A stretch of 64,000 nt of DNA. It comes from Candidatus Sungiibacteriota bacterium (GTDB lineage: Bacteria; Patescibacteriota; Minisyncoccia; Sungbacterales; SURF-37). The position numbers were made by a program, and so were the translations under genes. A model generated the notes under the pieces. That model did no database searches. It was given only the letters and a program-made list of their open reading frames with translations, and was not told the origin of the DNA. Positions 10,116 to 55,885 of the stretch are shown in pieces (within the stretch, counting starts at the first letter, position 1; the number at the start of each line of letters is the position of its first letter). The stretch is from positions 345-64,344 of the forward strand of contig JACPMF010000004.1 in NCBI GenBank assembly GCA_016186145.1, read 5' to 3'.

Positions 10116-10236
10116 CCGAAACCCCCTCTCGGTTTTGTCTCAAAAAAATTTTAAAAGAGCAACAATAAACTACTGTATAATAAGGATTCGCTGCTTAAAT
10201 TGCAATCATTAAAAAAACGGCATACAATGAAATCCT

Positions 10237-11985: not shown

Positions 11986-12043
11986 AACAAGCCGCATATA
12001 AAAATCTTTCATTAACGGCGATGTAACGAAAAAACCCGAACGA

Positions 12044-12206
12044 GCCATATCCTAAAATTTTCCATTGCAAAGATGTGAATACAAATTGACGAGCGAGCGA
12101 AACAAAATAACGGAAATTCGCTTATTTCGAATTTCCGTTATTCATTTTGTAAGGCTCGCGAGAATAATTTGCTCACATCGCTGCCTGGAAAATTTTAGGA
12201 TATGGC
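12044..12206. repeat. element bounded by 21-bp perfect inverted repeats (GCCATATCCTAAAATTTTCCA) with an internal 37-bp palindrome
   Basis: Inverted repeats at 12044-12064 and 12186-12206; inner palindrome aataacggaaattcgcttatttcgaatttccgttatt at 12106-12142. Lies between the convergent rel and parB genes. Confidence 0.55.
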
Positions 12207-12209
12207 GAG

Positions 12210-13328
12210 TCAGACTTCTCTGATAATCTTCCCGAGAATTGCCTGCAACTCTTCTTCCGAATAAAACTCAACGACTATTTTTCCGCGGGATCCGTCTTTT
12301 TGTAAAAGCACCTTGGTGCCAAGCGTTTCTTCAAGACGCGACTGCGCCACGCGTATTTCCGGGTCCATAAACATGGCATTCCGGCGCTTTGTAGGGCGGC
12401 GGGCGCCCAAGATGGCGCGAGTGGCAAGTTCTACATCCCGGACCGAAAGATTATTTGCTAGAGTCTCTTCAAAAAGCTTTGCCTGGTTTTCAGGAAGATC
12501 CTGAAGAGTCAAAAGCGCCCTTGCGTGACCTTCGGTTATGAGCCCGCCCCCCACCGCTTCTTGAATATTCCCGGGCAACGCCACCAAACGCACCGCATTT
12601 GCGACATATTCACGGGATTTACCAATACGCTCGCCCACCTGTTTATGGGTCAATTTGAATTCTTCAGAAAGCTGTTTGAACGCCTTGGCCCGTTCTATCG
12701 GATTAAGATCTTCGCGCTGAACATTTTCAATCAGAGCCAATTCCAACTTCTGCCGCTCCGGCGTCTGTCCGCGTTTGATTATGGAGGGAATCTCACGAAG
12801 CCCAGCCATAACTGACGCCCGCCATCTCCGCTCCCCAGCTATAATTTGATAGCGAACATCGAAGCCGCGCGGGGTTTCGAGCTCAACTTTCGATACCACA
12901 ATGGGCTGGAGTACGCCATGAACTTTTATTGAGTCAGCAAGGCTTTTTAGCGCCTCAATATCAAATTCCCGGCGCGGCTGAAAAGGATTTGGTTCTATTT
13001 TATCGATATCAATCCAGAAAACGCTCTCGCCTTTCGACCGGGCAAATTTCATTTCTTGATCGTAAGGGCCAACCGGAACCCCTGCCGGTATCTGTTGATT
13101 TAAAACTGGTTCTTGTTTAGGAAGAGTGTCGGCAACTGCAAAAACCGCGGGTTTTTGTTCTCCGGCCGGATCACCCGCATGCATAATTTTATAACTCGGC
13201 TCCAAAAGGTTTTCCTGCTCGCCAAGGACATCAAGCGGCTCTTTAATTACATAGCCGTTGAGTTCAGCACCCAATGGATTTAAATTGCCTTCAAAATTGT
13301 GTTGATTGTCGCTCGACATATCTACCAC
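12210..13328 (-). CDS. parB: ParB/Spo0J family partition protein
   Basis: ParB box (QPRREFD), GERRWRA, HTH; N-terminal extension of about 100 aa. Confidence 0.85.
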   Translation of the reverse strand: MVDMSSDNQHNFEGNLNPLGAELNGYVIKEPLDVLGEQENLLEPSYKIMHAGDPAGEQKPAVFAVADTLPKQEPVLNQQIPAGVPVGPYDQEMKFARSKGESVFWIDIDKIEPNPFQPRREFDIEALKSLADSIKVHGVLQPIVVSKVELETPRGFDVRYQIIAGERRWRASVMAGLREIPSIIKRGQTPERQKLELALIENVQREDLNPIERAKAFKQLSEEFKLTHKQVGERIGKSREYVANAVRLVALPGNIQEAVGGGLITEGHARALLTLQDLPENQAKLFEETLANNLSVRDVELATRAILGARRPTKRRNAMFMDPEIRVAQSRLEETLGTKVLLQKDGSRGKIVVEFYSEEELQAILGKIIREV

Positions 13329-13407
13329 AGCTTAAGATATTTTTTAAAAACGCGCAAGATGAGGTGTTGAAAACAGTAACTTTTTAATTTATAGTTGCAT
13401 GAGATCA

Positions 13408-13491
13408 GGGCATGTGGCGGAACTGGTTTACGCGCACGACTCAAAATCGTGTGGCCTCACGGCCGTGTGGGTTCGACTCCCACCATGCCCA
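13408..13491 (+). tRNA. tRNA-Leu (anticodon CAA)
   Basis: Hand-folded class II tRNA: acceptor GGGCATG/CATGCCC, anticodon loop CTCAAAA, long variable arm, T-arm GTGGG-TTCGACT-CCCAC; 84 nt. Confidence 0.8.
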
Positions 13492-14200
13492 TTTTGTACC
13501 CAAAACGAAACTAACATTTAAAGAATTCGAATGGACGCCGCAACTTGCTTATGTTGTAGGACTTTTAGTAACCGACGGTAATTTATCTAGTGACGGTCGA
13601 CATATAATAATGCGCTCGTCAGATGTAGAATTGTTGAACACTTTCAAAAATTGCCTTAATATCAATAACAGAATTGGAAGAACACAAAACGGCAAAACGA
13701 TTTCTTATAGAGTACAATTCGGAAGTATACAATTTTACAACTGGCTGAAGAAGATAGGACTATTCCCCGCAAAAAGTTACACGATCGGTGAAATAGATAT
13801 TCCAGATAAATTTTTTAGAGATTATCTTCGTGGATGTATAGACGGCGATGGCAATATTTGTACGTACAAAGATTTATATAACGTATATAAAGGAAGAAAA
13901 TACGTCACTCAGCGACTATTTATAAAAATTGTGTCTGCAAGTAAAAAACATATCGTTTGGCTTCGGAATAAAATTACTGCCCTTAACGGCAGTAACGGAG
14001 CAATAATTAAAGACAGCCCGGCAGATAAACAACGGGTTCCAATGTGGATACTGAAATTTGCCAAAAAGGAATCACTACGGCTTCTCAGTTGGATTTACTA
14101 TCAACCAGACATCCCTTGCCTTGAACGTAAACATATGACAGCTGTGTATGCCATCGAAGAGATTAGCAAACAAAAACGGCGTGTATATTCTAGAATATAA
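13492..14200 (+). CDS. LAGLIDADG homing endonuclease (double-motif), free-standing; start codon uncertain
   Basis: Motif 1 LAYVVGLLVTDGNL and motif 2 YLRGCIDGDGNI. The reading frame is open back into tRNA-Leu and there is no canonical start between the tRNA end and motif 1. Confidence 0.65.
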
Positions 14201-14260
14201 ACACTTGAAGGCAACCTCGTGAGAGTTCAACTCTCTCCCGCGGCATTACGAACCTACTTA

Positions 14261-14290
14261 AACCCCGGCAAAGGCCGGGGTTTAAAATTT
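14261..14290 (+). terminator. rho-independent terminator after the homing-endonuclease gene
   Basis: aaccccggcaaaggccggggtttaaaattt. Confidence 0.6.
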
Positions 14291-14587
14291 ACCCTTTTAA
14301 ACAGGTTTTGGGCAAACGCAATAAAATAATGGGCGCGTCTGGATTCGAACCAGAGTTCCCGGGTGTAGAACTGCGCAGCCGCTTCGCGGCTTGCTCGTTA
14401 CACCCGCGAAAAGTCACCGCACCATCCCGAACAAATTGAGGTTAGGGTGCGCGATCCCGTACTTCCGCGATACTGACTCTGTACCATTACGGGTCAGCAG
14501 TTCGGGAGATGCGGGATCTGCGCCAACTTCTCGCTCCCTCTGGTCGCGGAAGTTGCGGGACTATTTAAACGCTTTTCGCCCTTCTCA

Positions 14588-14706
14588 ATTCATCCCGTTG
14601 GATTTTATAAAAATGGGCACTGCAGGGATCGGACCTGCGGCCTTCACAATGTCAATGTGACGCTCTACCACTGAGCTAAGTGCCCTAGAAAATCTAACGG
14701 GATGTC
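14588..14706. repeat. 16-bp inverted repeat (CATCCCGTTgGATTTT / AAAATCTAACGGGATG) bracketing tRNA-Val; ends resemble the MITE terminal inverted repeats
   Basis: Left 14588-14603 and right 14691-14706; 15/16 matches; the left end is preceded by ATTCAT. Confidence 0.6.
14614..14685 (-). tRNA. tRNA-Val (anticodon GAC)
   Basis: GGGCACTTAGCTCAGTGGTAGAGCGTCACATTGACATTGTGAAGGCCGCAGGTCCGATCCCTGCAGTGCCCA; cloverleaf folds, but the T-loop is TCCGATC (C at position 55, unusual). Confidence 0.75.
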
Positions 14707-14865
14707 AACGAGACGCTCTAACCGGCCTCGGCTACGCGCCCTTAAAACGAATCGGACGATGCTGAACGACGTTAGAACCTACTTTCAGGGTATCAAAAAC
14801 TACGAAATGTTTCCAGATTTCAGCAGGATTTCAAAATAAAATCGGCTCTTTATGGAAGCCGATCT

Positions 14866-29943: not shown

Positions 29944-30753
29944 CTACGGAATAAACATATTAACTCCCCTACTTACTCCGCTCTTGAAAAGATCGCCGAT
30001 AAACCCGGCAGGACACTTGAATAAAGCGCTTTCCTTTTTCGGATTATTGATCAATCCGCCTTTGATCAGACGGCTCAACACGTAATCTCCGCGCCAGACG
30101 ATAATGAAAGAAAAATCGTTCCCGATCTCAAGCGACTCGTCATTGTTTATACAAATGCGATCCGTAACCTTTTTAAGGCCGCGCTCAAAATACTGTTCGC
30201 CATAGTGACTCTTCATAAATTCGGTGTAGGCCTTGATCTCTTCGGGCTTCTGGAGCGGCGGCGGGCTTACGGACATACCGACCTCGGCAAGCGCGTCATT
30301 CCCGGAGAGCACCCGCGTATTCTGCCGATGAACCCTCTCTGTCTCGTCAGAATAAATGGTAAAACCCTTTTTTCTTACCTCGGCTCGGGTATCCCCTAAA
30401 ATGCCACTTTTCTCATCCGTTTCCCGAATCGACTTGAAAACTTCAACCATGCGCTCAATATCAGGAATCGTACAATCGTTTACAGTTGTTTGAAGTTTTT
30501 CAACTCGCTCTTTTGGATCCGACTTAAACAAAGAAACCGGATTAAGCTTCGCAAGAAATCCCTTCTTCGGTGGAGACTCTATTTCGCGTTCTGCCTGTTT
30601 AAGTTCCTGACACGACTTTACAAAAAGCCCGGTGGTCCTGAAATCAAACGACTCTTTTTTGATAATGGACAAGCCTGTTGAAGCGCATCCGGAAAGAAAA
30701 ACCGCCAAAACAATAATGCCGGCAAAAAAAACGGCGTCCCGACGAACCATCAT
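29944..30753 (-). CDS. hypothetical lipoprotein
   Basis: Signal peptide plus lipobox (LSGCAS). Confidence 0.5.
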   Translation of the reverse strand: MMVRRDAVFFAGIIVLAVFLSGCASTGLSIIKKESFDFRTTGLFVKSCQELKQAEREIESPPKKGFLAKLNPVSLFKSDPKERVEKLQTTVNDCTIPDIERMVEVFKSIRETDEKSGILGDTRAEVRKKGFTIYSDETERVHRQNTRVLSGNDALAEVGMSVSPPPLQKPEEIKAYTEFMKSHYGEQYFERGLKKVTDRICINNDESLEIGNDFSFIIVWRGDYVLSRLIKGGLINNPKKESALFKCPAGFIGDLFKSGVSRGVNMFIP

Positions 30754-30910
30754 GGCTGTACCTCTTTTCAGATTTCAAAAAACTATTGTTGTATTTACCC
30801 CAACATTAGTTCTCTCGTCACCCCTTGTCAATACGATACGATTCTGAACTATGCGAAGGCAAGCCCCCGCGGTTCTTAAGGATAACTACCCAGCTCAAAT
30901 TTTGCTTCAC

Positions 30911-31070
30911 GGGCCAAAGCGAAGCGCTTCGCCCGAATGCGGGATGTGCCTATTCGGCACGCGCGCTTCGCTCTGTTTTCAGACGACATTCCTTTGATAA
31001 AAACAGCACTGCGGGATAATGGCAAAATTTGAGCGGGGTTAGCCCTCGTGCTCCGCCATTCATCGCGGCG
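30911..31070. repeat. direct repeat (right copy) flanking the lipoprotein gene
   Basis: See 29671-29835. Confidence 0.5.
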
Positions 31071-31101
31071 GCAAGCCGCCGCGGTTTCTGGCGGACTCGG
31101 G

Positions 31102-31611
31102 CTAAAAAGCGCCAGCAACACGCCCAATCGCAACGCCAACCGCTATCGCAATTCCCCCAATCGACGCCATCCGAAGACTACCTTTCCAGATATTCGTCTT
31201 GGAAAGTTTCGCGCCGATAATGCCGAGAACGAAAAGAGCGGCAAGCGAAAGACCGATTGAATACCATAGTGCGTTTCCCGGCGTCAAAAAAATATAAGGA
31301 AAAAGGGGTATGAAACCGGAGAAAAAATAAGAAACAAACATTATGCCCCCGCTGGTGATCGGGAACGCGAACGGCGCTTCGGTTTGGCGCAAATACCCTT
31401 CTGCGGAGTGCTCGGAAAGAAAACTCCCGACAGCCATAGAAAACGCTTCGACAAAAACAAGAATAATGCCCGTGATAAGAATTGCCCGCGCCCCCACTCC
31501 GGCAATAGAAACCCCGGAAAGCAGCCCAACGGTCGACACCAAGCTGTCTTCAACCCCGAAAACGAAATTTCGGAGATAGGACGCAGAATATAAATTTTGT
31601 TCGCGAGCCAT
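31102..31611 (-). CDS. VIT1/CCC1 (DUF125) family membrane protein
   Basis: EDSLVSTVGLLSGV motif and multiple TM segments; start moved to MAREQNLY. Confidence 0.65.
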   Translation of the reverse strand: MAREQNLYSASYLRNFVFGVEDSLVSTVGLLSGVSIAGVGARAILITGIILVFVEAFSMAVGSFLSEHSAEGYLRQTEAPFAFPITSGGIMFVSYFFSGFIPLFPYIFLTPGNALWYSIGLSLAALFVLGIIGAKLSKTNIWKGSLRMASIGGIAIAVGVAIGRVAGAF

Positions 31612-31630
31612 ATTCTTTAAAAGAGTTGTG

Positions 31631-32398
31631 TTACTGGGCAAGCCATCCCCCGTCCGCATAAAATGTCGCGCCGGTAACATAGCTTGCCTCGGATGACGCC
31701 AAGAACACAACCAGTGCTGAAATTTCTTCCGGCCTCCCGATTCTTTTCAAAGGAACCCGTTCCAAAATTTCTTTCAACATCTCCTTCCCAAGTTTCTTTC
31801 CTGACGCGCGAACCATCGGCGTATCAATCGCTCCGGGGGCGATTGCATTGACCGTAATGCCGAACCGCGCAAATTCCACCGCCATGCTTTCCGTCATGCC
31901 GATTATCCCGCCCTTTGAAGCCGCATAATGCACAGCCCCTTCAAAACCGATGCCGACCCCGCCCGAGGCGATCGAAGAAATATTAATGATCCGGCCCCAT
32001 TTCCTTTTTGCCATTTCCTTGGCCGCGCGCTGGGCGCATAAAAACTGGCCCTTCAAGTTGATATCGACGGTTCGGTCCCAATCCGCTTCAGTAAGCTTCA
32101 GGGCGGATTTCGGGGAATAAATGCCGGCATTGTTAACAAGGATATCCAGACGCCCAAACTGTTTTATCACACGGTCAAAAACCTGATCAACGGCAGTTTT
32201 ATTCGAGACGTCCATTTCGAAACACGCTGCCCGTCCCCCTTTTGACCTTACCTCTTTGACAACCCGCAAACACTCTTTTGCATCAATATCCGTTATAACA
32301 ACCCGTGCGCCCTGTCGCGCCAGCGCAAGCGCATGGGTCCGGCCCATCCCGCGCCGTGCGCCGGTAATAAATGCAACCTTATTTTTAAGTTCAAACAT
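31631..32398 (-). CDS. SDR-family oxidoreductase
   Basis: TGARRGMG Rossmann motif; YAASK catalytic motif. Confidence 0.9.
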   Translation of the reverse strand: MFELKNKVAFITGARRGMGRTHALALARQGARVVITDIDAKECLRVVKEVRSKGGRAACFEMDVSNKTAVDQVFDRVIKQFGRLDILVNNAGIYSPKSALKLTEADWDRTVDINLKGQFLCAQRAAKEMAKRKWGRIINISSIASGGVGIGFEGAVHYAASKGGIIGMTESMAVEFARFGITVNAIAPGAIDTPMVRASGKKLGKEMLKEILERVPLKRIGRPEEISALVVFLASSEASYVTGATFYADGGWLAQ

Positions 32399-32408
32399 AT
32401 TTTTATTT

Positions 32409-32789
32409 TTAGCGGAACCACTCTCTTAATGTCCTAGGCCAACCGACCACAAGAAACAACGCCAACGGCGCTCCCCAGTTTGCCCAACGTTCTACAAAAT
32501 CCCAAACCGGCATGCCAACAAGCGGCCGCACCAGCGCAGTCCAAAACCCCCAAAACGCCATCCACAACAGCACGATCCGAACCGGCTTTACTAAAATAAG
32601 CAGGGCGAGAATAACGTCAATAACGCCGACGAAAAACAAAAGCTGCGTCGCTGTTACAGAATCCGCAACCCCGAATCGGGCAAACCACCCGATCCATTCC
32701 TTTTTACCCTGAAGCGCAAAAACACCGTGGCCGATAAATTCTCCGGCGACCGAAATTCTTAAGACCCATTCAACAAATTTTGTATTCAT
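32409..32789 (-). CDS. DoxX-like membrane protein
   Basis: Four-TM small protein. Confidence 0.45.
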   Translation of the reverse strand: MNTKFVEWVLRISVAGEFIGHGVFALQGKKEWIGWFARFGVADSVTATQLLFFVGVIDVILALLILVKPVRIVLLWMAFWGFWTALVRPLVGMPVWDFVERWANWGAPLALFLVVGWPRTLREWFR

Positions 32790-32896
32790 AGTGCTTTTAC
32801 AATAACTTTTTTAACCAGTAAAGCATCTTTCGACCAACGGATGCCGGATTAAAATCAAATAATAAGAGGTTTTCCGCATACAATTTTATTGTACCA

Positions 32897-33898
32897 CTAT
32901 ACGCCGCATCCTCCGCCGCTGGGCGTCGGAGCAGGTGTGATTTCGTTCAAAATCTGCCGATAACCAGACGCGCTTGAGTAGCGGGCGCCTAGGACCTCTT
33001 TCGGATCGGCGCTCCCCCATGAAACACCTTTCATTTCGAGATATTTTGCAATGGTAAGATACGTCCCGGGAAACCAATACGCATTCACCTGCAGAGCAAC
33101 TTTGTACATTTCGTTTTCGCTCACCCCCTGCGACGCCAAAAGTTCAAGAAGACCGAGCATTGCCATGCCGTGATTGCAATCGGGGAAATGAGTCGGGTTA
33201 TTACAGCACGGGCGATAGATATTTTTACTTACTCGTTCAACAATTTTCTGCTGAAGAGGCGTGAGGACAACAAAGGGGTGCCGGGAATAATGATCCATTG
33301 CGTCCCCCTTTGCGAGCGTCCATCCGCCGGTTGATGCAAAATTAGCCGCCTTTGCGAGCGCCTCCTCCGGCGAAGCGGGCGCTCTGCCGTCATAAGTCAC
33401 CATCGGTCCTCTGTCCAAAACGTCATTCTTATTTCCGAGGCCGAGGGCCCAAAAAAGGTTCAAAAGAAATCCCGAATTTTCCGGTGTGATTTTAATATTG
33501 CCGTTATCCGACCGCTCTAGAAACCGCAAATATTCATCACTAAGCCCTCCGCGACTCGCGTAAACGGATTTAAACCTCTCCCCGTCAATCACTCCGACAC
33601 TCACCATCTTAACGCCGAGATCCCCCCACCGAACCGGCAAAATTATCCCCGACGAAGGCAGAACTTTTTCTTCAAACGCGTCTCGCGCCGGCGCCTGCCC
33701 GTTTAAAGGAGGTTGAAATTCTGCCCGGCCCTGCCATGACTTTGGATCTGCTGTATAAAGCCAGGCCCCAACCAAGATAACCGCGGAAATCACTACGCTT
33801 GCAGGCAACAGATAACCCTCTTCCGCACCCCTTTCACTCTCTTCAGATTTTTCCACCAAGGGCGGATCCGTCTTAAACGAAAAGTTTTGGTTTGCCAT
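32897..33898 (-). CDS. hypothetical membrane-anchored protein with CCNNPTHFPDCNHG Cys/His motif
   Basis: N-terminal TM; Cys/His cluster suggests metal or redox function; adjacent to CcdA. Confidence 0.45.
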   Translation of the reverse strand: MANQNFSFKTDPPLVEKSEESERGAEEGYLLPASVVISAVILVGAWLYTADPKSWQGRAEFQPPLNGQAPARDAFEEKVLPSSGIILPVRWGDLGVKMVSVGVIDGERFKSVYASRGGLSDEYLRFLERSDNGNIKITPENSGFLLNLFWALGLGNKNDVLDRGPMVTYDGRAPASPEEALAKAANFASTGGWTLAKGDAMDHYSRHPFVVLTPLQQKIVERVSKNIYRPCCNNPTHFPDCNHGMAMLGLLELLASQGVSENEMYKVALQVNAYWFPGTYLTIAKYLEMKGVSWGSADPKEVLGARYSSASGYRQILNEITPAPTPSGGGCGV

Positions 33899-33948
33899 AA
33901 TATTCTTCCCATTAGAACCAGACTATCACTGTGTGGTCTAACAAGAAC

Positions 33949-34413
33949 CTAACAACAATCCTCCATCTTTTTTTCAAGCTCCCCAACCGCCTTTCCACTC
34001 TCCTTCCCGGACCCGGCCAACCAATAGGGTTTCTTAAAAAACCATACTGCCAACAAAAGAAGAAACACTATTGATACGGCAAACGCAAATAACCAAGAAA
34101 GAATCAGGGCGTAAACAGCAATAAATCCGATGGGGATAAAAAGCGTTTTCCAGAGGAGCAAAGAAGAGCCTTGCGGCAGGCGTTTTTCCAATTGATACGC
34201 AATGCCCGCCACCGATCCGCCCATGGCTAACAAAGCTATCATCCTCCAACTCTCGGCTTCCAGCAAACCGGCGTACAGGCCAAAAAGAATCCAGAACCAC
34301 GTTCCGGAAACCCCGGCGCAAATCGGGCAAACGGTAAACGGCAGTATTTTATTCGACAACAACACCAGCCCCGTCAGGGCGAAAATCGAAACGGTTGCAA
34401 TAAAGATTTCCAT
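33949..34413 (-). CDS. hypothetical integral membrane protein (CPIC motif in the first TM region)
   Basis: Four predicted TM segments. Confidence 0.4.
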   Translation of the reverse strand: MEIFIATVSIFALTGLVLLSNKILPFTVCPICAGVSGTWFWILFGLYAGLLEAESWRMIALLAMGGSVAGIAYQLEKRLPQGSSLLLWKTLFIPIGFIAVYALILSWLFAFAVSIVFLLLLAVWFFKKPYWLAGSGKESGKAVGELEKKMEDCC

Positions 34414-34421
34414 ACTTGGAT

Positions 34422-35213
34422 TTATAACAAAAAAATAATTACTCCCAGAGCAACCATCGCAAGGCCCCCCCCGAAACGCATCAATCCTTTTTCTTTCTGC
34501 TGCCAGCCCCTCACTTTCTCAACAAGCGTTGCGTTGCCGGCAACCAAAAGAATAATCACAAGCGGCAATATGAAAATGGCATTGTAAAGAAGCAGATAAC
34601 CAAGTCCTCTAAAATATGTCGCTTGGTCGTGCAAAAGCCCCAACACCATCAGATATGGTCCGCCGGTACACGGAAATTCGCAAAGCCCCACGAGACCGCC
34701 AAGAAAAAATGCCGTCGGCACCGATCCCTTTTCCATAAGCTCTGCCATTTTTCGATGGGCGGCAGAGGGAATCCGAAGCTTGATCGGAAATGAAGGGAAA
34801 AATTCATTTATGAGATTTATGAGTCCAAGAAGAACAAGAAGGAACGCCCCGACCCGCGCCATGAAATGAGGCGTGTTAAAGATATGGAGTGTTTGCAGAA
34901 CCCCAAGCCCGATCAGAATGTATATAACGAAAATGCCGGCAATATAAGCGCTGCCGATTTTCAGAACGCTTGAACGAACTTTCCCGATGCTGAAGAGAAA
35001 CGCGATCGTAAGAATCAAAATCGAGAACGCGCACGGATTTATGCTATCGATGAGTGCCGCAACACCGACAAGAGGCAAAAGCCACCTCCCGCCGTCTGAT
35101 AACTTCCACAGCGTCTCGGTCCCGATTCCGCTGAAACGGAAAAAAATAAATGTCGCAAGGAGAACAACGCCAACGGCAATAAGAACGGTAATTTTGAGTT
35201 TTGACTTTTCCAT
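34422..35213 (-). CDS. ccdA: cytochrome c biogenesis CcdA / DsbD-beta family thiol:disulfide transporter
   Basis: Six TM segments with conserved Cys in NPCAF and CEFPCTGGP. Confidence 0.8.
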   Translation of the reverse strand: MEKSKLKITVLIAVGVVLLATFIFFRFSGIGTETLWKLSDGGRWLLPLVGVAALIDSINPCAFSILILTIAFLFSIGKVRSSVLKIGSAYIAGIFVIYILIGLGVLQTLHIFNTPHFMARVGAFLLVLLGLINLINEFFPSFPIKLRIPSAAHRKMAELMEKGSVPTAFFLGGLVGLCEFPCTGGPYLMVLGLLHDQATYFRGLGYLLLYNAIFILPLVIILLVAGNATLVEKVRGWQQKEKGLMRFGGGLAMVALGVIIFLL

Positions 35214-35222
35214 TTTAGATCG

Positions 35223-35720
35223 CTACGGAGTGACAAGGACTGTGAATCCGAGCTTGAGCGGCTCTCCGGCATTATTCTCTATAATTATTGCCCTATGAAT
35301 TCGACCGATCCCCGCAGGACCGTGGGCCGCCGGGTCAAAAACGACGTTAACAACGGCTTCCGCACCCGAAGCTATCGCTTCTTTAATGCTCGGCGAAAAT
35401 CCGTGCCCCGGCATGCCGTACGGACCGAAAACCTTACCCCCCACTTCAAGCGTGGCGCTGGTGCACATGCACGAGGTATACATTTTTTCTATAACCACCG
35501 ATTCTTGCCCGGTGTTTTTGATCCGAAACAAATGACTAACATTCCCGGCCGCCATCGAAACCGTACCAAAGTCAAAATCTTTCTCTTCTGCGCTTATTGC
35601 GCCGGTGGAACCCGAAACCGAAGGGGTGACAATACCACCCTCCGGAGAAGGACGCATGGCCCAAACAATCCCGGCAAAAGCAATTACTCCCGCCGCGATT
35701 CCAATAGTTATTTTATTCAT
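35223..35720 (-). CDS. DUF1573-like secreted/anchored protein
   Basis: FDFGTV...NTG motif; ATGAAT start directly abuts MITE copy C. Confidence 0.55.
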   Translation of the reverse strand: MNKITIGIAAGVIAFAGIVWAMRPSPEGGIVTPSVSGSTGAISAEEKDFDFGTVSMAAGNVSHLFRIKNTGQESVVIEKMYTSCMCTSATLEVGGKVFGPYGMPGHGFSPSIKEAIASGAEAVVNVVFDPAAHGPAGIGRIHRAIIIENNAGEPLKLGFTVLVTP

Positions 35721-35862
35721 CCCGTTAGAAGCAGATCGCGATTAAATATCCACAATCTGCCTTTTTAATTATTTAAGCGTTAATAAAGATTTGTGAATCC
35801 CGAATAATCTCACAAGCAATCGCACCTGCCTACCGACAGGCAGGGCTTCTAACGGGATTCAT
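35715..35862. repeat. MITE-like element, CCCGTTAGAAGC family (copy C)
   Basis: ATTCAT|CCCGTTAGAAGCagatcgcg...cagGGCTTCTAACGGG|ATTCAT; internal hairpin cctgcctaccgacaggcagg. Confidence 0.75.
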
Positions 35863-35953
35863 ATGTTTTTAGGTTAGAGATTGGAATTAACAACAAGCCC
35901 CTTTTAAGGGACAAAGAAAAGACGCTCGACAAGCTAGTTACTGGTAACTAGTT

Positions 35954-36364
35954 TTATCGGCGCAGAAGAAAAGAGGCCGGACTGTTTTCGTGCAATGCAA
36001 GCCAATGGGTTAGTTCCCGTCGAACCAACCACGAAGAATCTAAAAATCGGTATGCCGCAAACGGCCGATTGAATAGAAAGTAAAACTGGAATCTTGGTAT
36101 TACGCCAAACCAAAAAACAATAAAAAACAAAAGCAAAAGAAGCCCGCCGATGCTGTCGCTAAAAATGGCCGCTGAAAAACTTCTAAAAGTGTCGAGATGA
36201 AACTTCGCAAATGAAAAAGTATTCCACCCTTCAGGACAATCTATTCCTTTGGCGATCGCCACGATACATCCGCCGTGGTCGTTTCCATGCCCCATAATCA
36301 TAAACCCAAAAACGGCAATTCCGACAAAACCGATAAGCACAAAAAGTGTAAAGAGTGGCTTCAT
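35954..36364 (-). CDS. hypothetical small membrane protein
   Basis: 136 aa, two or three TM segments; ATGAAG start abuts MITE copy D. Confidence 0.4.
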   Translation of the reverse strand: MKPLFTLFVLIGFVGIAVFGFMIMGHGNDHGGCIVAIAKGIDCPEGWNTFSFAKFHLDTFRSFSAAIFSDSIGGLLLLLFFIVFWFGVIPRFQFYFLFNRPFAAYRFLDSSWLVRRELTHWLALHENSPASFLLRR

Positions 36365-36584
36365 CCCGTTAGAGACCCGCCTGCCATCGCCTTTGTGTGA
36401 AGAAAGGAGGCGGTTCTATACTTTAACTTACTAATGTGTGATTTCTCAACTCTATAGAAGGGCATATGGCGGGCAGGTAGGACGCGGACGCACAAAACAC
36501 CCAACGCCCTATATTGTTATTGCTTACAAATTTTTACTCTTCTATAAAATTTTATTCGCGTCCGCGATCTCTAACGGGATTCAT
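36360..36584. repeat. MITE-like element, CCCGTTAGAG/CTCTAACGGG family (copy D, 225 bp)
   Basis: cTTCAT|CCCGTTAGAGacccgcctgcc...gcgtccgcgatCTCTAACGGG|ATTCAT. Confidence 0.7.
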
Positions 36585-36752
36585 CCCGTTAGAAGCAGAT
36601 CGCAATCGCATAATTGCTATCTGAATACATTATTGTTCTATATCCCAATAATATTTTATGAATCTCGTAACTTCTACAAGCGATCGCGCCTGCCTGCCTA
36701 CTGGCAGGCAGGCCGACAAGCAGGGCTTCTAACGGGATTCATAACCACAGTA
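36578..36752. repeat. MITE-like element, CCCGTTAGAAGC family (copy E, tandem to D, sharing the ATTCAT junction)
   Basis: ATTCAT|CCCGTTAGAAGCagatcgcaatcgc...gcctgcctgcctactggcaggcaggc...GGCTTCTAACGGG|ATTCAT. Confidence 0.75.
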
Positions 36753-36829
36753 TAGCAAAGCGTGAGAAAAACACAAAAAGGAAATGGACCTCGTCCGTGC
36801 CAGTTGGAACCAGGTTATACAGTTTCTGC

Positions 36830-37239
36830 TTACTTGGCAGAAACTGCCAACTCTTGGAGTTTCTTCAGAGCTTCTTCTACAGAGTTGACTATAAAACCAG
36901 TTTTCTTTACGAACTCAATAGACCATTTCGGGTTCCTGTCTTCATGCCAAATGATAATCAGTTTATTACAAAAGTCACCAGGCATTTTCGTGTTGTTCGC
37001 ATAAAAATAACCTATTTCTATCCACGTTCCTTCCGAAGTCGCTAAACCAGGATTGGCAACCATAAAGTCAGCACTTTTTATTCCATTCAAATCATCAGGA
37101 AAAAATGTATCTGGAGAAGTTTGGTCTGAATCAAATTCATAATCGTGAAAATCAAAACTGTCTAACTTCTTGAATTCTTCCTTCCAATCATTTTCGTATT
37201 CGTTAGGTTGACCAGCAAGATATACTTTTTTCTTTTGCA
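36830..37239 (-). CDS. nucleoside 2-deoxyribosyltransferase-like protein
   Basis: KVYLAG...W...F..., then ADFMVANPGLATSEGTWIEIGYFYA; start placed at MQKKKVYLAG. Confidence 0.55.
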
Positions 37240-37544
37240 TAGATATACATGGATACAAGCATTTTAATATGGATTTGGTGGTCATTATACGATAAAATCA
37301 GAACCTTTTTTGAGCAAAATCCCGATTGATTTACCTAGTCATTCGGGTAGTCATTCACCCTACCTCGGAATGACTACCTTGCGTTTCTAAATCTGCCCAT
37401 CATTCCTATCTTTTCTGACTTAACTACCTCTAAAATCAAAGTCCGACTTTCCTCCTCCGGAGGACTGGCTCGCCGCCCTGCTGGTCGGCTCGCTTGGTCG
37501 CCGAAATTCCTCCCCTCAAACCCCTCCTTCCGGCTCCTTTTCCC

Positions 37545-38420
37545 CTAATTCTTGAGCCTCGAATTCAGGACTTCTTTAAGGGTAATCCCATCTTTGCTTT
37601 TCCATTCCAGTGGGCCAGAAGCAGATCTTCCTAATATGACACCACATGCTGCACTTGAGCTATCAAATACATAATCGTCAGTAAAGACAAGGGTGGTACC
37701 CTGGACACTTAATCGTTGCATTGCCACAAGTTCATCCTTGAGTTTTTTATACGGATGAGTCTGAAAAGACGGCGTTTCTTCTAATGAGGCCGTAGAAGAT
37801 TTCAAAACTTTCATTTTTCCGTCTTCTAAGAGATGGCCCGTAGCTATGATATTGGATCCTTTTTTGCAGATAAAAACCAAAGGGGTAACAGGTGTTTTCC
37901 CAGAAGTAAATTCACTTTGCACAAATATATCGTATCCGAGCAGAGGCATAATTGTTGCTAGGTTTTCATAAAACACCTCTAATCCACTTACATCTTCTTT
38001 TGGGATCGTAGGCACGCCAGGATTGTTAGCATTTTTTAGGTTACACTTCCCGATTTTCTTGAGACGTTCAATACAAACACTTTCGAGGTATTGAATTCCT
38101 GTTTTTGTTAATGATCCATCTTGACTTACAAAAACAACAACATCCTGCCACCAATCTTTTTTATAATCGTGATCTCTAATTCTTTCCTTGAAACCATCAG
38201 CTTCACCAACGTACACATTGAGCAATCCACCTTCATCAGAGCTACCAATGAGAAAGTAAACGCAAGCTCCACTTTCTATTTCAGGCAACGTAATGATTTC
38301 ATTTAAAGCGTTACGAGGGCCACAAATGGCTTTGCCACTCCACTGATCAATCCTCACTTCCCTTACTCCCTTCGGAAGTCCTGCTGCCAAAAAAATTGTG
38401 ATCTTCTTACCTTGATTCAT
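37545..38420 (-). CDS. GIY-YIG nuclease domain protein with a C-terminal DUF4357-like domain
   Basis: CVYFLIGSSDEGGLLNVYVGEADGFKERIRDH (GIY-YIG-like); overlaps the methyltransferase stop by 14 bp. Confidence 0.55.
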   Translation of the reverse strand: MNQGKKITIFLAAGLPKGVREVRIDQWSGKAICGPRNALNEIITLPEIESGACVYFLIGSSDEGGLLNVYVGEADGFKERIRDHDYKKDWWQDVVVFVSQDGSLTKTGIQYLESVCIERLKKIGKCNLKNANNPGVPTIPKEDVSGLEVFYENLATIMPLLGYDIFVQSEFTSGKTPVTPLVFICKKGSNIIATGHLLEDGKMKVLKSSTASLEETPSFQTHPYKKLKDELVAMQRLSVQGTTLVFTDDYVFDSSSAACGVILGRSASGPLEWKSKDGITLKEVLNSRLKN

Positions 38421-39603
38421 AAGTTTTTTTCGGTTTTAGAAGCAGCACTAGTTCTTCCGACTTTACTCTAGATTTCTTCTCGCGGTTATGTTTATTAAAC
38501 TTATTATTGCCACCTAAGGTACTGAATCTGCCAATCACATGCTTGTGAATGCGGCTTTTATTTTTATCCAGATTAAAATATTTTTTAGCCAATTCAATAA
38601 CCTTATCTCCAGACAATCCATTGCTAGATTTTCCTTTAGGAAAGGTAAAAATAACTTTAACCTTCTTTCTCGACAGGCCGGATAAGAGTTGCTCTAAAGC
38701 TTTATATGATTGTCCCGCATTACTAAATTCTGATTGTGGACGCTCAGATATATCCGGATAACGTCCAATACCGGTAACTTCTCCGCAGTAACCACGTGCA
38801 ATTGTTTCAAGTACATGATAAAAACGACTATATTGGACACCGGAATAGGGCGGATCAAGAAGAACCAAATCTCCTCTTTTTAATTTAGGTATTAATTTTT
38901 TAGCGTCTGAAACCATCGCCCTACCTTTTACTTTCGCGTGTAGAGGGACGAGTTCTTTTAACGCGCTATCGCAGGATTTAAAAATATCAGTGCGCCATGC
39001 AATTTCAATAAATTTTCCGGCCCCGGCAGTTGGCTGAAAAGGTTGGGCGGTATGTCCAGGAGCAGCAGCAGCCCTAGAAGCAGCAATTATGGTTGCTGCT
39101 AAGCAAATATCTCTGTATTTAGTTTGCTTAGGTAATGTATTTAAAAGATAGTCGATGGTAATGGCTTGTTTCGGACTAAAATAATGGCCTCCGTAAGCAC
39201 GCCAAACGGGACCAATCTTAGAGGGAGTTTTGCAAAGTTTCCTTGCCGCATTAACTCTCAACTTTATTTTTCCGGAATACTTTTGATCTACTCCATTGGC
39301 TTTATTTAGAAGCTTCGAAGTATTTAGTTTCTTTTTTGCTTTCTCTATCCAAGCTCTCTTTAAATATTCCGCATCGAATACCTTAGTGCGTCCAATTACG
39401 GCTCTTGCGAGAACAACAGCGTATTTTTGCAGATCACCTGCAATAATTTCGCCTTTAAAATTCAGATTTTTAGCAACAAAATTTATTACTCCTCCGGAAC
39501 CGCAAAATGGGTCAATGAATCTATTGGCATACGGAAGCTGCTCACGGAGTAAGTCTCCGAGACCATTGCTCAACATAAACCTTTTTGAACCCATGTATTT
39601 CAT
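38407..39603 (-). CDS. DNA N6-adenine methyltransferase, Dam-like (D12 class)
   Basis: Motif I FIDPFCGSGGV and motif IV LLDPPYSG; N-terminus KYMGSKRF as in Dam; ATGA overlap with the upstream gene. Confidence 0.85.
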   Translation of the reverse strand: MKYMGSKRFMLSNGLGDLLREQLPYANRFIDPFCGSGGVINFVAKNLNFKGEIIAGDLQKYAVVLARAVIGRTKVFDAEYLKRAWIEKAKKKLNTSKLLNKANGVDQKYSGKIKLRVNAARKLCKTPSKIGPVWRAYGGHYFSPKQAITIDYLLNTLPKQTKYRDICLAATIIAASRAAAAPGHTAQPFQPTAGAGKFIEIAWRTDIFKSCDSALKELVPLHAKVKGRAMVSDAKKLIPKLKRGDLVLLDPPYSGVQYSRFYHVLETIARGYCGEVTGIGRYPDISERPQSEFSNAGQSYKALEQLLSGLSRKKVKVIFTFPKGKSSNGLSGDKVIELAKKYFNLDKNKSRIHKHVIGRFSTLGGNNKFNKHNREKKSRVKSEELVLLLKPKKTYESR

Positions 39604-40940
39604 AGGCAAAGTTGCGAAAGAGCTATTCTTTCGCATCCCGATAGCGCCAACAGCTCTGTTGCGAAATTTGAACGCCATTGGTAGTGATTGTTTACAGAAG
39701 AAGAACTACTGCTCATACTTGCCAGCGCTTCTTCCACTTCAATCCACATATCAGAGATGGGATTTACTTGCCCGGGCTCCCATAGTCCATAATTTTCTCC
39801 TAATGTTTCCCACCAAAATTTTATGTCGTTTCTTGAGATACGAGCGTTTTCAATCATAGTCATCCCTGCTCCTGTTGCTAACCTTAAAAGTAGAGTCGCC
39901 CTGCTCAACATCTGAATATGATAATCAGGATCAGTCGTTTTCCCCTTTTTACTTGCTTCGACAATCAACATAGGATCTCTTTGCTGTGTTTTTCGACTAA
40001 AAATCTGAGTTAGGGTGGTTAGTTCAGGATCACTTATGCCAAGATCTGTAAGTATTTTTCTAATCTGAGATTGCGAGAGTTGCCCGTTATTATATTTTTC
40101 CCAGCTCAATCTTAATAAAAAGGTATCTGCGACAAAACCACCAGTTCCATTCATGCTACACATGCGCCATATATTTTCTACTATCCCCAAAGAATTCCTG
40201 ATCTGAATAGAATTCCTAAAACTAAGGTCGTTCAAAATACCGCTTGGTCTATAGCTTGCGTGTTCACGTGCAGATTGATCTATTCCCAATGTTGTTATGT
40301 CGTACCCCCAATGTTTAAGCCAATCTTTTGCTAAATAATTGAGTGGCGCTGTTGAGATCTCAGAAAACCAAGTTTCTAAAGTTATACTATTAGGCCGAAT
40401 AATTTTTTGAAATAGTCTTCCAGAATCAGGGCGACCGAGCCAATCAATAAATTGCTTTCTTACTAGTGCGTGGGTTTTTTCTGAAATCGGCCCGTAAATA
40501 TCTGAAGACTTTCCATTAGCACCCACTATTGAAAAATGTTTTGCACTGAAAACACCTATGCCATCACTTGCAAGTAAAGACATCACAGCTCTCAGTTGGG
40601 CATAATATGCAAAATGCTTACAAGCCTGGATGTCGCCAACGGCATGACTAATTATAGCTTTACCCAAGAAACTCCAACCATCCACGCAGTGTAAGGGAAC
40701 TGAAGCGGCTATGTACTCTGCTAATTGAGTTTTTTTAGGTCCCGTTATTCGGTGAGGTGCTCTTCTGGGACAATCCTTTTCTATTTTTTCCGTACAGTTT
40801 TTTGCATATCTATTTTGAACACCAAGCCAGCCACCCCTTACAAAGTGTCTTTTAAGACGATTAAAGGTTTCTTGGGTAGCTATCCGAGAATAATGTCTAG
40901 TTGAAAATTTATCTGGCATTCTTGGCATCTTCTTTAGCAA
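39600..40940 (-). CDS. hypothetical protein (446 aa) inside the defence cassette
   Basis: No recognisable motif; translationally coupled between the DGQHR and methyltransferase genes. Confidence 0.5.
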   Translation of the reverse strand: MLKKMPRMPDKFSTRHYSRIATQETFNRLKRHFVRGGWLGVQNRYAKNCTEKIEKDCPRRAPHRITGPKKTQLAEYIAASVPLHCVDGWSFLGKAIISHAVGDIQACKHFAYYAQLRAVMSLLASDGIGVFSAKHFSIVGANGKSSDIYGPISEKTHALVRKQFIDWLGRPDSGRLFQKIIRPNSITLETWFSEISTAPLNYLAKDWLKHWGYDITTLGIDQSAREHASYRPSGILNDLSFRNSIQIRNSLGIVENIWRMCSMNGTGGFVADTFLLRLSWEKYNNGQLSQSQIRKILTDLGISDPELTTLTQIFSRKTQQRDPMLIVEASKKGKTTDPDYHIQMLSRATLLLRLATGAGMTMIENARISRNDIKFWWETLGENYGLWEPGQVNPISDMWIEVEEALASMSSSSSSVNNHYQWRSNFATELLALSGCERIALSQLCL

Positions 40941-42444
40941 ATCCTAAAATCTTATATGTTTCTCTGGCAAGACTGCCAAAATCTTTACTAATAAAAAGGT
41001 GTTTTAACAGTTGACGCCTAAATTGTTTATAACCACTACCTCCTCGATAGGAAAGTTTAAGAACAAGATCATCTTCGCTTAATCCTTTCGCCGCTGAAGA
41101 TCTCCAATCAAATTTAGACAATTCTTTGGCAAGTTTAAATACAAAATCAGCAAGTATTTTTTTCTTCTTTAAATCTTTAAGTTCCGATGCTGAGCTCGAC
41201 TCCGCGTTCGGATTCCACTCTTGTAATCTCAACTTTTCTCGATTGATAAATAGTAGATCATTTGTAACATTTAAAACCACAGAAATTCCTTGGTCATTGT
41301 TAAGCATTGTGTAAGGACCAACAAACGCAGGATCTCCGCTGACTGCCTTTTTATATTCTTGTTTCTTGGCATCGCGCAACTCAAGAGCCCACTTTGCCTT
41401 AGATTTTCTAACAGCGTCCCTTAATTCGTTCCAGAGATAAATAAGCAGGGCCGCTTGTTGGCTTTTATTCCAAGGAATTGCAATTTTATCCTGACCAACC
41501 GGTGCTCCAAATAGTCCGCCGATAGATATGCCTCTACCCTCAAATGACTTAACGTATGTTTTTAATAAAGCTCTTACCCAAGCTGCTTGAGTAACAGAGG
41601 GACCACCACTTTCCCCAAGCATGTTGATTCTATCGTACCAAGCACTATCCTTTTCTGACCATAGTATCTCAACTAGCTCTTGTGCTCGAGTTTCTCGGTA
41701 AACCTTATGGCCTTCAAATCTCTCAAGCCAATCTTCTGTCCGAAGTAAGGGGTACAGATCAAAAGCAAGGCTTGGGTTAATTCTTTTGGGCTTAATATTG
41801 ATTGTCCAAAAAAGATACGCTTGCCAACTTATATCAAGACCGTAAAATGCAACAACTGGAAGTTCATAATCTTCAGCAATACTTTTATCCTCAAACGCTA
41901 ACAGTCGGTGTTGCCCATCAATAATCTCAATGGGAAGTCTCTGTTTGGCCTGCCAGGTATTTGAATTATTAAAAGAAGCTGGCAACTGAACCTCGGCTAT
42001 GTTTCCTGCTAAATCCCTTACAGTCACTAGATCGTTCGGATCAACCCTTTCTCCATCACGCGTATCTTTGGCAGCTAAAATATTTACAACGATAGCTGTA
42101 GGTAACCAGCCTGGCTTTTGTAAATCATCAAACCTTTTCTCCTTACGTTGGGAATCAGTCAAATCTGACCAGGGATATCCGTATTTTATGTATTTCGCAA
42201 TTTTTTCTGATCGTGACGGTTCGTGAGCTCGTTGTAAACCGGTCCGCGACGCTAGACTCCTGCGATAGACACCTGAGAGTACCTGAAGTTGACGGGCGGA
42301 AAGTGAAAAAACGTAAAAATGATTTTGAGGCTCTCTACGATGCTCATTATTACTCCACTGAACAGAATCCCAGCCTTTAAGCCATTGGTTCACTTTTAAG
42401 GCCTGTATCTTATTTGGTTTGCGAGGCTGGGACTTCTTTTTCAT
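40909..42444 (-). CDS. DGQHR-domain protein (DndB-like, ParB-like nuclease superfamily)
   Basis: Exact IIDGQHRLLAF motif; 511 aa. Confidence 0.8.
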   Translation of the reverse strand: MKKKSQPRKPNKIQALKVNQWLKGWDSVQWSNNEHRREPQNHFYVFSLSARQLQVLSGVYRRSLASRTGLQRAHEPSRSEKIAKYIKYGYPWSDLTDSQRKEKRFDDLQKPGWLPTAIVVNILAAKDTRDGERVDPNDLVTVRDLAGNIAEVQLPASFNNSNTWQAKQRLPIEIIDGQHRLLAFEDKSIAEDYELPVVAFYGLDISWQAYLFWTINIKPKRINPSLAFDLYPLLRTEDWLERFEGHKVYRETRAQELVEILWSEKDSAWYDRINMLGESGGPSVTQAAWVRALLKTYVKSFEGRGISIGGLFGAPVGQDKIAIPWNKSQQAALLIYLWNELRDAVRKSKAKWALELRDAKKQEYKKAVSGDPAFVGPYTMLNNDQGISVVLNVTNDLLFINREKLRLQEWNPNAESSSASELKDLKKKKILADFVFKLAKELSKFDWRSSAAKGLSEDDLVLKLSYRGGSGYKQFRRQLLKHLFISKDFGSLARETYKILGFAKEDAKNAR

Positions 42445-42515
42445 ATAATTTATTTAGATTTTCTACATCTATATAATAGCAAGTTGAGATCTGCTAAGCA
42501 TGTTTCTTTATAATA

Positions 42516-42731
42516 TTAAAATTTGGCAAAAAAGTTTCCGATTTTTAAATTTAAAGCCTTCGCAATTTTTTCTATATTTTCCAATGTTATATTTTTCTCG
42601 GCTCTCTCAATCATGCCGATGTAAGTCCTATGAACGCCAGCGCGGGTGGCTAGTTTTTCTTGAGATAATCCTAATTTAGTTCGCTCCTCACGAACTCTTT
42701 TGCCAAATTTGATTAAGATTTCTCGTTTCAT
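42516..42731 (-). CDS. XRE-family HTH transcriptional regulator (controller-protein-like), first gene of the cassette operon
   Basis: 71 aa; canonical XRE HTH (LGLSQEKLATRAGVHRTYIGMIERAEKNITLENIEKIAKAL). Confidence 0.8.
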   Translation of the reverse strand: MKREILIKFGKRVREERTKLGLSQEKLATRAGVHRTYIGMIERAEKNITLENIEKIAKALNLKIGNFFAKF

Positions 42732-43032
42732 AGTTGATAACTATAGTATATGCACTTGCTAACTTTGGTGCTACATACTATAGTTAGCATAGTTTGAGGG
42801 GAGGAATTTCGGCGACCAAGCGAGCCGACCAGCAGGGCGGCGAGCCAGTCCTCCGGAGGAGGACTTTGTGGAAAACAGTAGAAGTGTGGAATGGGGGCGT
42901 AGCGTAGTGAAGTCGGACTTTGATTTTAGAGGTAGAAACGCAAGGTAGTCATTCCGAGGTAGGGTGAATGACTACCCGAATGACTAGGTAAATCAATCGG
43001 GATTTTGCTCAAACGGCGTCCGAACAGTCTCA

Positions 43033-43098
43033 TAAAGACACCACAATTCAAAACTTTTCGACTTGTCCCCGGTGAAAAAGGCGAAAAGTTTTGAATTG
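43033..43098. repeat. long hairpin (ccacaattcaaaacttttcg ... cgaaaagttttgaattgtgg) between tRNA-Ala and the right repeat of the cassette
   Basis: 20-bp perfect inverted repeat around a 26-nt loop. Confidence 0.5.
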
Positions 43099-43170
43099 TG
43101 GACCGGATGGGATTCGAACCCACGGTCTCCTCAATGCCATTGAGGCGCTTTACCACTAAGCTACCGGCCC
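43099..43170 (-). tRNA. tRNA-Ala (anticodon GGC)
   Basis: GGGCCGGTAGCTTAGTGGTAAAGCGCCTCAATGGCATTGAGGAGACCGTGGGTTCGAATCCCATCCGGTCCA. Confidence 0.85.
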
Positions 43171-55869: not shown

Positions 55870-55885
55870 CCGTGAATGACTAAAA

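Follow-up and report, generated by a model that had tools for sequence, protein, structure and literature searches.

A gene triad of a DGQHR-domain protein, an unclassified partner and an adenine methyltransferase in a repeat-bounded cassette of Candidatus Sungbacteria: a candidate restriction-modification-like defence module

Among the modification-based defence systems described so far, in DndI and SspE the ParB-fold (DUF262) domains have been shown by experiment to be nucleoside triphosphatases (NTPases) that sense phosphorothioate and gate a fused HNH nickase, by which unmodified phage DNA is restricted (PMC11662687). ParB-like proteins of the COG1479/DGQHR type are often fused to HNH, PD-(D/E)xK or HEPN domains and stand beside modification systems (PMC3632139). 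Restriction-modification (R-M) genes are also known from transposon-like units, which have no transposase and are bounded by long imperfect inverted repeats of 26-65 nt (Furuta, Abe and Kobayashi 2010, PMC2853133). Here we describe a cassette of approximately 5.7 kb from a metagenome-assembled genome of Candidatus Sungbacteria (Patescibacteria), located in a 64-kb stretch of DNA which was analysed as a whole and is called the window hereafter. Five co-directional minus-strand genes are enclosed by two ~215-nt inverted repeats, beside tRNA-Ala and in AT-rich DNA (Table 1). From the head of the operon they encode a small XRE regulator, a DGQHR-domain protein, a 439-aa protein of no recognised family, an N6-adenine DNA methyltransferase and a DUF4357 protein. 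Its functional logic follows modification-based defence as already known, and one of the core proteins is unclassified. We give an even chance to the reading that the cassette is a controller-regulated, restriction-modification-like defence module captured by a repeat resembling a miniature inverted-repeat transposable element (MITE) in a hypervariable spot flanking the tRNA gene.

A first-pass annotation of the window, made from the letters alone, had proposed the five genes together with their repeats as one candidate undescribed module. Comparison with other genomes did not uphold the five genes as the unit. The survey covered 83 loci. Of these, 80 are genome loci encoding homologues of the 439-aa protein, drawn from 203 confirmed matches, and three are Logan contigs; their open reading frames (ORFs) were searched with the five window proteins. 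These loci span approximately 18 phyla, the archaeon Methanoregula included. The DGQHR gene lies immediately upstream of, and co-directional with, the gene of the 439-aa protein in 82 of the 83, the exception being a contig edge. A methyltransferase gene adjoins this pair in approximately 68 loci, as a long D12-class enzyme downstream in 51 and as a true Dam-family enzyme (240 bits against TIGR00571) in 17; the methyltransferase of the window belongs to the long (~385 aa) clade. The conserved unit is the triad of DGQHR protein, 439-aa protein and adenine methyltransferase. The DUF4357 gene is accessory and not core, as it is present in only five of the loci (two of the three identical Logan contigs, two other Patescibacteria and one Ignavibacteria), and the XRE gene was found in four.

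Triads annotated as 'DGQHR domain-containing protein / hypothetical protein / Dam-family or DNA adenine methylase' are carried by Zymomonas mobilis pZZM405 and by a Rhizobium tumorigenes plasmid, in the latter case a few kb from Tn7-like TniB and recombinase genes. On pZZM405 (L089, positions 9890-11613) a DUF4433 and macro-domain gene pair, which we take to be DarT/DarG-like, is found ~2 kb downstream of the triad. The Zymomonas triad was not found on other records of the plasmid collection, and the methylome of Zymomonas ZM4 was rejected as a test of methyltransferase activity, the triad being on pZZM405 and its presence in GCA_003054575.1 not confirmed. At another locus, L088, the triad (its partner 75% identical to that of the window) is directly preceded by a tandem pair of tyrosine-recombinase genes (6612-8368). 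In several genomes not related to one another (L005, L038, L075 and L076), Type I genes resembling hsdR and hsdM, their families assigned by eye, take this position, which is a defence-island context.

No dnd or dpd gene is present in the 64-kb window, in agreement with the first-pass annotation, which had named dndACDE and dpd. Elsewhere the DGQHR/439-aa pair is found in a dnd context in three of the 83 loci (a Pseudanabaena plasmid, L007 and L030). The order on the Pseudanabaena plasmid is DndD-like, a 224-aa protein, dnd_assoc_4, DGQHR, partner, DndC and DndD, and its DndC and DndD score above the equivalog cutoffs (684 and 579 bits, respectively). The pair is portable between modification writers.

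The 439-aa protein had initially been given 446 aa and no family. The latter held, while the length did not: independent gene calls on the three Logan contigs prefer the start at 40919 to the TTG at 40940. The protein has no match in Pfam, NCBIfam, PADLOC, PHROG or the PDB sequences (searched with a profile in the case of PDB), a Pfam scan of all 42 family members returned no family at E <= 1 and no HEPN model, and tblastn of phage genomes with the protein gave no match. A profile search of 1.84 billion representatives yielded 1,221 family representatives at 50% identity; among the 150 best listed, the members are mostly ~420-475 aa long with few shorter ones, and the matches are full-length. 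Its members form a discrete family of a single architecture. They share many invariant polar residues, the conserved positions being H77, D80, W82, H102, YY105-106, R110, TH149-150, D207, R218-N-x-x-S-Y-R-P, R340 and E430. The protein is the fastest-evolving of the triad, with a median identity to the window protein of 32% vs 49% for the DGQHR protein and 45% for the methyltransferase. The cassette of L023 (8420-13433, compared with window 37545-42444) is a mosaic in this respect, its methyltransferase being 82%, DUF4357 protein 83%, DGQHR protein 61% and partner 34% identical to those of the window, which suggests either that modules were shuffled or that the partner evolved at an accelerated rate.

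The AlphaFold2 model of the 439-aa protein (pLDDT 88.7, pTM 0.91) is all-alpha save one beta-hairpin, and a Foldseek search of it against PDB returned nothing significant. The protein may be described, tentatively, as having a HEPN-like helical bundle. The HEPN motif Rx4-6H is not conserved in the family (16 of 42 sequences have the best candidate), and in its place there is the invariant motif R218-N-x-x-S-Y-R-P. A one-line table entry in a 2013 survey lists the HEPN family MAE_28990 with a ParB nuclease and a DNA methylase as operon partners (Anantharaman 2013, PMC3710099). The listed partners are the same as here (ParB-like protein, HEPN-type protein and DNA methylase), but the likeness is one of operon context only: the MAE_28990 family is listed as keeping Rx4-6H, whereas the 439-aa protein, a possible member, has neither a conserved Rx4-6H nor a Pfam HEPN match. 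The idea behind the cassette is not wholly undescribed, contrary to the first-pass annotation, and its DUF4357 protein is already a PADLOC candidate (PDC-S14, see below). No experimental or named description of it was found in the literature searched, and its gene set matches no system in PADLOC 2.0, in agreement with the claim that it is not a named system.

The identification of a DGQHR protein in the first-pass annotation was correct, since the window protein scores 76.2 bits against TIGR03187 (cutoff 58.85, E = 3.4e-21) and is a member of the DGQHR domain family. The signature motifs defined in PMC4619093, namely the QR pair, the DGQHR pentapeptide and FxxxN, are represented by Q71-R72, D176-G-Q-H-R180 and F212...N216, all of them invariant in 36 homologues. 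It is not DndB proper: the Pfam DndB match covers only model positions 11-159 of 338 (38.5 bits), and no NCBIfam DndB equivalog was matched. The DGQHR_dnd_1 model (TIGR04172) gave 58.3 bits vs a cutoff of 450, over residues 173-232 only, and the DpdB equivalog 22.4 bits vs a cutoff of 300, with no dpd neighbours. The AlphaFold2 model (pLDDT 80) has weak ParB-like, sulfiredoxin and BrxU matches only, its C-terminal half is helical and of no family, and a PDB sequence search with the protein returned nothing meaningful. A protein 100% identical to it is on record from the Candidatus Sungbacteria genome, on a 67-kb contig; exact-protein searches with flanking genes of the window gave no record. 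Compared with the DndB/DGQHR proteins of dnd and dpd clusters, the cassette protein shares the domain and the three motifs, and the pair stands at the dndB position in some genomes. However, it is a 511-aa protein with an obligate 439-aa partner, and canonical DndB has no such partner.

Other comparable systems are SspE, DndI and GmrSD/BrxU (a DUF262 ParB-fold NTPase and a DUF1524 HNH domain). Like them, the cassette couples a ParB/sulfiredoxin (Srx)-fold DGQ(Q/H)R domain to a modification writer. In contrast to them, it has DGQHR and not DGQQR, no HNH/DUF1524 domain and a separate, unclassified helical protein as putative effector; neither the DGQQR NTPase motif nor a C-terminal HNH DUF1524 was found in the DGQHR protein. 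The mark of the cassette is presumably N6-methyladenine (m6A), that of SspE and DndI phosphorothioate.

The inverted repeats do enclose five co-directional, closely packed genes, as first described. The overlaps are 11 nt between the DGQHR and 439-aa genes, 4 nt between the 439-aa and methyltransferase genes and 14 nt between the methyltransferase and DUF4357 genes, and the XRE gene is separated from the DGQHR gene by 71 nt. The 4-nt ATGA overlap follows from the methyltransferase start at 39603 (398 aa), which is preferred in the same gene calls on the Logan contigs. An identical cassette is present on all three of these contigs, and all three stop at the inner repeat edges, where an assembler is expected to break at an inverted repeat. 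That the operon is headed by a controller-type XRE regulator, as the first-pass annotation held, is supported by a match to the PADLOC model 'Control_protein' (E = 8.5e-22) and to HTH_3 (E = 1.6e-17). Two C-box-like ACTATAGT palindromes are located immediately upstream of its start codon, in the layout expected of a controller-protein operator. The regulator has the characteristics of a controller (C) protein in being a small HTH_3 protein, in matching the C-protein model and in having palindromic boxes upstream of its own gene. A promoter/terminator consensus scan was uninformative (20 sites vs 14 expected).

The methyltransferase had been called Dam-like. It is an N6-adenine enzyme of the D12 class (MethyltransfD12, 55.9 bits vs cutoff 22), with motif I DPFCGSGG of the FxGxG type binding S-adenosylmethionine and motif IV DPPY (LDPPYSG), but it is not a Dam orthologue, scoring 28.5 bits against TIGR00571 where the cutoff is 114.85. 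Similarly, of the GIY-YIG/DUF4357 assignment the DUF4357 domain was verified (59.2 bits vs cutoff 38.4), and GIY-YIG stands at motif level only: the Pfam match of the 291-aa protein is below the cutoff (E = 0.12, 13.1 bits vs 22.6), and VYFLIG, VYVGEA, R80, E113 and N130 are invariant in four homologues. PDB sequence searches with the protein and with a profile returned nothing meaningful. Over its full length the protein is the PADLOC candidate PDC-S14 (273 bits, E = 4.8e-82), which is a single-gene candidate there, while the copy in the cassette is translationally coupled to the methyltransferase within a larger operon. Fusions of DUF4357 with restriction-type nucleases, and with McrB or GmrSD proteins, are found elsewhere. 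The idea that DUF4357 is a RAMA domain was dropped, as there was no RAMA match.

These last genes could also make up an ordinary C-regulated Type II R-M system, in which the D12 methyltransferase would be M, the GIY-YIG-like/DUF4357 protein R, and the DGQHR and 439-aa proteins DndB-like limiters. With such systems the cassette shares the small XRE regulator at the operon head, the paired palindromic boxes upstream and a D12-class adenine methyltransferase. GIY-YIG restriction enzymes exist, Eco29kI and Hpy188I among them, the methyltransferase and DUF4357 genes overlap, DUF4357 has the fusions just mentioned, and the pairing of the two genes recurs in a distant lineage (L060), the DUF4357 protein of which is 31% identical. 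We nevertheless regard this explanation as unlikely. More than 90% of the triad loci have no DUF4357 gene or other recognisable nuclease in a conserved position, and the triad must therefore work without DUF4357. The PADLOC definition of PDC-S14 is that of a single-gene candidate, one that usually stands alone, the cassette has no recognised Type II restriction endonuclease family, and a C gene normally precedes the R gene, whereas here it precedes the DGQHR gene.

The arms of the inverted repeat are confirmed at slightly corrected ends (Table 1). Their complementarity is 98% over the outer 86 nt and 100% over one 26-nt block and over the inner 72 nt, and their middles differ by unrelated inserts of ~29 and ~46 nt. 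The conserved arm blocks are each present exactly twice in the 64-kb window, where chance would give none. Both arms carry 7-bp terminal inverted repeats of their own, (G)TTTGAG...CTCAAAC; in RNA folding, the reverse-complement of the right arm gave z = -3.97 with its ends paired, and the arms fold on themselves. The repeat core includes an 11-bp-stem hairpin, GGTAGTCATTC-N11-GAATGACTACC, and copies of the 9-mer TAGTCATTC, of which the window holds seven vs 0.3 expected; the extra TAGTCATTC, at 55874, is not a copy of the repeat.

A metagenome scan with the hairpin core yielded two further contigs, L085 and L084. The 33-nt hairpin is identical in both window arms, L085 and L084, and a 55-nt core is near-identical in all four, with two mismatches upstream of the hairpin. 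In L085, an arm of the same family (82% match to the left arm of the window over 128 nt) has an inverted partner, and the right arm is truncated at the end of the locus. The pair bounds an unrelated two-gene cargo (11521-14742) of a 194-aa and a 597-aa gene, for which no significant Pfam or PADLOC match was found, one AbiEi match being marginal (E = 0.008). L084 terminates in the outer end of such an arm, which is identical to the arm of L085. Immediately outside this arm (849-2730) lie a helix-turn-helix (HTH) and ImmA/IrrE metallopeptidase gene (PADLOC RmrA, E = 3e-18) and a DUF4411 gene. No flanking inverted repeats were found around the homologous cassettes of five genomes (L004, L023, L060, L086 and L088). 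The repeats are a separate MITE-like family bounding variable cargo and not part of the defence system, contrary to the first proposal, because the same core bounds unrelated cargo in L085 and homologous cassettes lack the repeats. An Rfam scan of 36.5-43.8 kb found the tRNA only, so that the repeats match no known RNA family, and scans of viral contigs with both repeat blocks gave no match.

Viewed as a candidate MITE-bounded or transposon-like R-M unit, the cassette has the inverted repeats, and the repeat also occurs in other contexts, but what relatives lack is a larger 12.4-kb segment. As in the units of PMC2853133, modification and restriction genes are combined with long imperfect inverted repeats and no transposase; in contrast to those units, the arms are ~215 nt long and belong to a repeat family bounding other cargo, and neither a target-site duplication nor a clean empty site was found. 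The repeat-bounded unit may be mobile. We consider it rather improbable that the repeats, instead of being two independent MITE-like insertions, are recombination sites making the cassette invertible and phase-variable, or that they are long terminal repeats belonging to one transposon. The three TAGTCATTC copies per arm, two direct and one inverted, do resemble the layout of recombinase binding sites such as FRT-like sites. The arm blocks are near-identical and the second cassette, in L085, has the same repeat family in an inverted pair. Insertion of R-M units flanked by long inverted repeats in a transposon-like manner has also been documented (PMC2853133). However, the operator/promoter region lies inside the repeats, so inversion would have no obvious switching effect; no recombinase or transposase is present in or next to the cassette, target-site duplication was not seen, and both arms are self-folding and have short terminal inverted repeats of their own, as separate units would.

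The cassette had been placed one hairpin away from tRNA-Ala, and a hairpin with a 24-bp stem does lie between the tRNA gene and the right arm. It overlaps the last tRNA-Ala bases and far exceeds an ordinary terminator in length. The closest relatives, whose HtrA gene has 81% nucleotide identity, have ~175 nt between tRNA-Ala and their orthologue of the window gene 29944-30753, and therefore lack 12.4 kb (30.75-43.1 kb) at this position. Comparison of relatives at tRNA-Ala, as had been suggested, showed the cassette to be absent, being found at this flank in none of the relatives examined, but it was a larger segment that was missing. As this segment also carries ordinary-looking genes (VIT1, SDR, DoxX and DUF1573), its absence does not give a clean empty site for the cassette. 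In three relatives that are more distant, tRNA-Ala is followed by different genes again. The tRNA-Ala flank is hypervariable, and two other four-gene cassettes are also located near tRNA genes. A duplicated 3' segment of tRNA-Ala, of the integrase att type, was not found among the direct repeats of the window.

The statement that the unit is more AT-rich than its flanks is true of the wider flanks, the GC content being 0.38-0.43 within the cassette vs mostly 0.45-0.55 outside, but the low-GC stretch already starts near 36.5 kb, ~0.8 kb left of the left arm. Just outside this arm, within the same stretch, there is a 151-aa ORF (36830-37285, minus strand) with a sub-threshold match to nucleoside 2-deoxyribosyltransferase (Pfam E = 3.8e-5, 24 bits vs cutoff 28.8). 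As this ORF shares the low-GC stretch with the cassette, foreign DNA may reach left of the repeat. The window also holds seven copies of a repeat resembling repetitive extragenic palindromic (REP) elements, TTCATCCCGTTAGAAGC, vs none expected by chance, mostly in inverted pairs ~110-145 nt apart (9987-10114, 35716-35861, 36360-36376 and 36580-36741), and pairs of it bracket a small ORF (35954-36364). A 34-nt piece of it is 94% identical in a relative (L094), and the REP-like repeat is therefore common to related genomes.

Table 1. Features of the cassette and its surroundings in the 64-kb window
Feature	Coordinates	Strand	Remarks
Variable region flanking tRNA-Ala	30754..43097	.	12.4 kb, absent here in closest relatives; low GC ~36.5-43.0 kb
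Left inverted-repeat arm	37309..37521	+	213 nt; MITE-like unit
Conserved repeat core	37330..37378	+	three TAGTCATTC copies (two direct, one inverted)
DUF4357 protein, GIY-YIG-like N-terminus (motif level only)	38420..37545	-	291 aa; DUF4357, PDC-S14
D12-class N6-adenine DNA methyltransferase	38407..39603	-	398 aa; Pfam MethyltransfD12
Unclassified 439-aa protein ('UNK')	39600..40919	-	all-alpha + one beta-hairpin; no family
DGQHR-domain (ParB/Srx-fold) protein	42444..40909	-	511 aa; TIGR03187
XRE/HTH_3 controller (C-protein-like) regulator	42731..42516	-	71 aa; HTH_3 + PADLOC models
Putative operator	42735..42789	.	two ACTATAGT palindromes 37 bp apart, within 15-nt inverted arms
Right inverted-repeat arm	42792..43013	-	222 nt
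Hairpin abutting tRNA-Ala, between tRNA and right arm	43041-43101	-	24-bp stem, 96% complementary
tRNA-Ala(GGC)	43098-43170	-	anchor of variable region

Taken as a defence module, the locus would be a composite of three parts with separate histories: the core triad, lineage-specific additions and the repeat packaging. Because ParB-fold domains gate the nuclease in DndI and SspE, and because ParB-like proteins are fused to nuclease or HEPN domains, we infer the following mechanism. The N6-adenine methyltransferase would mark host DNA as self. The DGQHR (ParB/Srx-fold) protein would read the modification state of DNA in an NTP-dependent manner, and the 439-aa partner would act as an effector or co-sensor that damages nucleic acid on meeting unmarked, that is foreign, DNA. 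The logic would be that of SspE, DndI and GmrSD, in which one ParB-fold NTPase domain controls a nuclease domain, with sensor and effector now split over two proteins, with an effector other than HNH and with m6A as the mark. The XRE regulator and its operator may hold back or limit expression of the toxic genes once the operon has been transferred, in the manner of C-regulated Type II R-M, and the GIY-YIG-like/DUF4357 nuclease (PDC-S14) would be an optional second nuclease layer. As for the packaging, the operon lies between two inverted copies of a MITE-like element, copies of which bound other cargo in related contigs, and the unit is located in the hypervariable region beside tRNA-Ala.

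Several points weigh against the defence module. The only PADLOC match of the DGQHR protein is a weak one to DpdB, a recognisable DNase domain was found in neither of the two core proteins (DGQHR and 439-aa), and a GIY-YIG-like nuclease candidate directly downstream of the methyltransferase also fits an ordinary R-M pair. Mobility of the repeat-bounded unit is countered by the lack of a target-site duplication at the repeat ends, of a clean empty site and of a transposase. Furthermore, canonical DndB is reported to be a regulator of modification and not a restriction factor (PMC4507180; PMC10853773), and the DGQHR protein might therefore do no more than tune methylation. The pair would then serve DNA modification as a regulator or housekeeper, limiting or targeting methylation or phosphorothioation, and would not be a defence effector; the operon would be an epigenetic module on mobile DNA. 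DndB has been described as an ATP-modulated repressor limiting phosphorothioate modification, and the pair does hold the dndB position in real dnd clusters, which together with the missing DNase domain would suit such a role. The controller protein and the tight translational coupling, however, point to toxic products. The fast evolution of the partner resembles an arms race, defence or mobile neighbours are frequent, and the phyletic spread is wide and patchy, as is typical for defence genes. A purely regulatory role seems to us a fairly remote prospect.

Somewhat short of even confidence, the observations on proteins and repeats may be read jointly. The DGQHR and 439-aa proteins would form an uncharacterised two-protein restriction module, with a ParB-fold NTPase as sensor and a non-canonical HEPN-like effector having RNxxSY for Rx4-6H, which would be portable between self-marks (m6A mostly, DndC/DndD phosphorothioation in cyanobacteria). 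Separately, the ~200-400-nt repeats with the 55-nt hairpin core would be a new non-autonomous, cassette-bounding family shuttling defence cargo in Patescibacteria.

If the triad works in defence, it would add a widespread R-M-like family whose effector belongs to no annotated protein family. The principle of SspE and DndI, in which a nuclease is gated by a ParB-fold NTPase that reads a modification, would then be extended from phosphorothioate to adenine methylation, and the same reader pair within dnd clusters would offer a natural experiment on the adaptation of one reader module to two marks. The repeat-bounded packaging, in turn, hints at how Patescibacteria with their small genomes may exchange defence cargo without transposases of their own.

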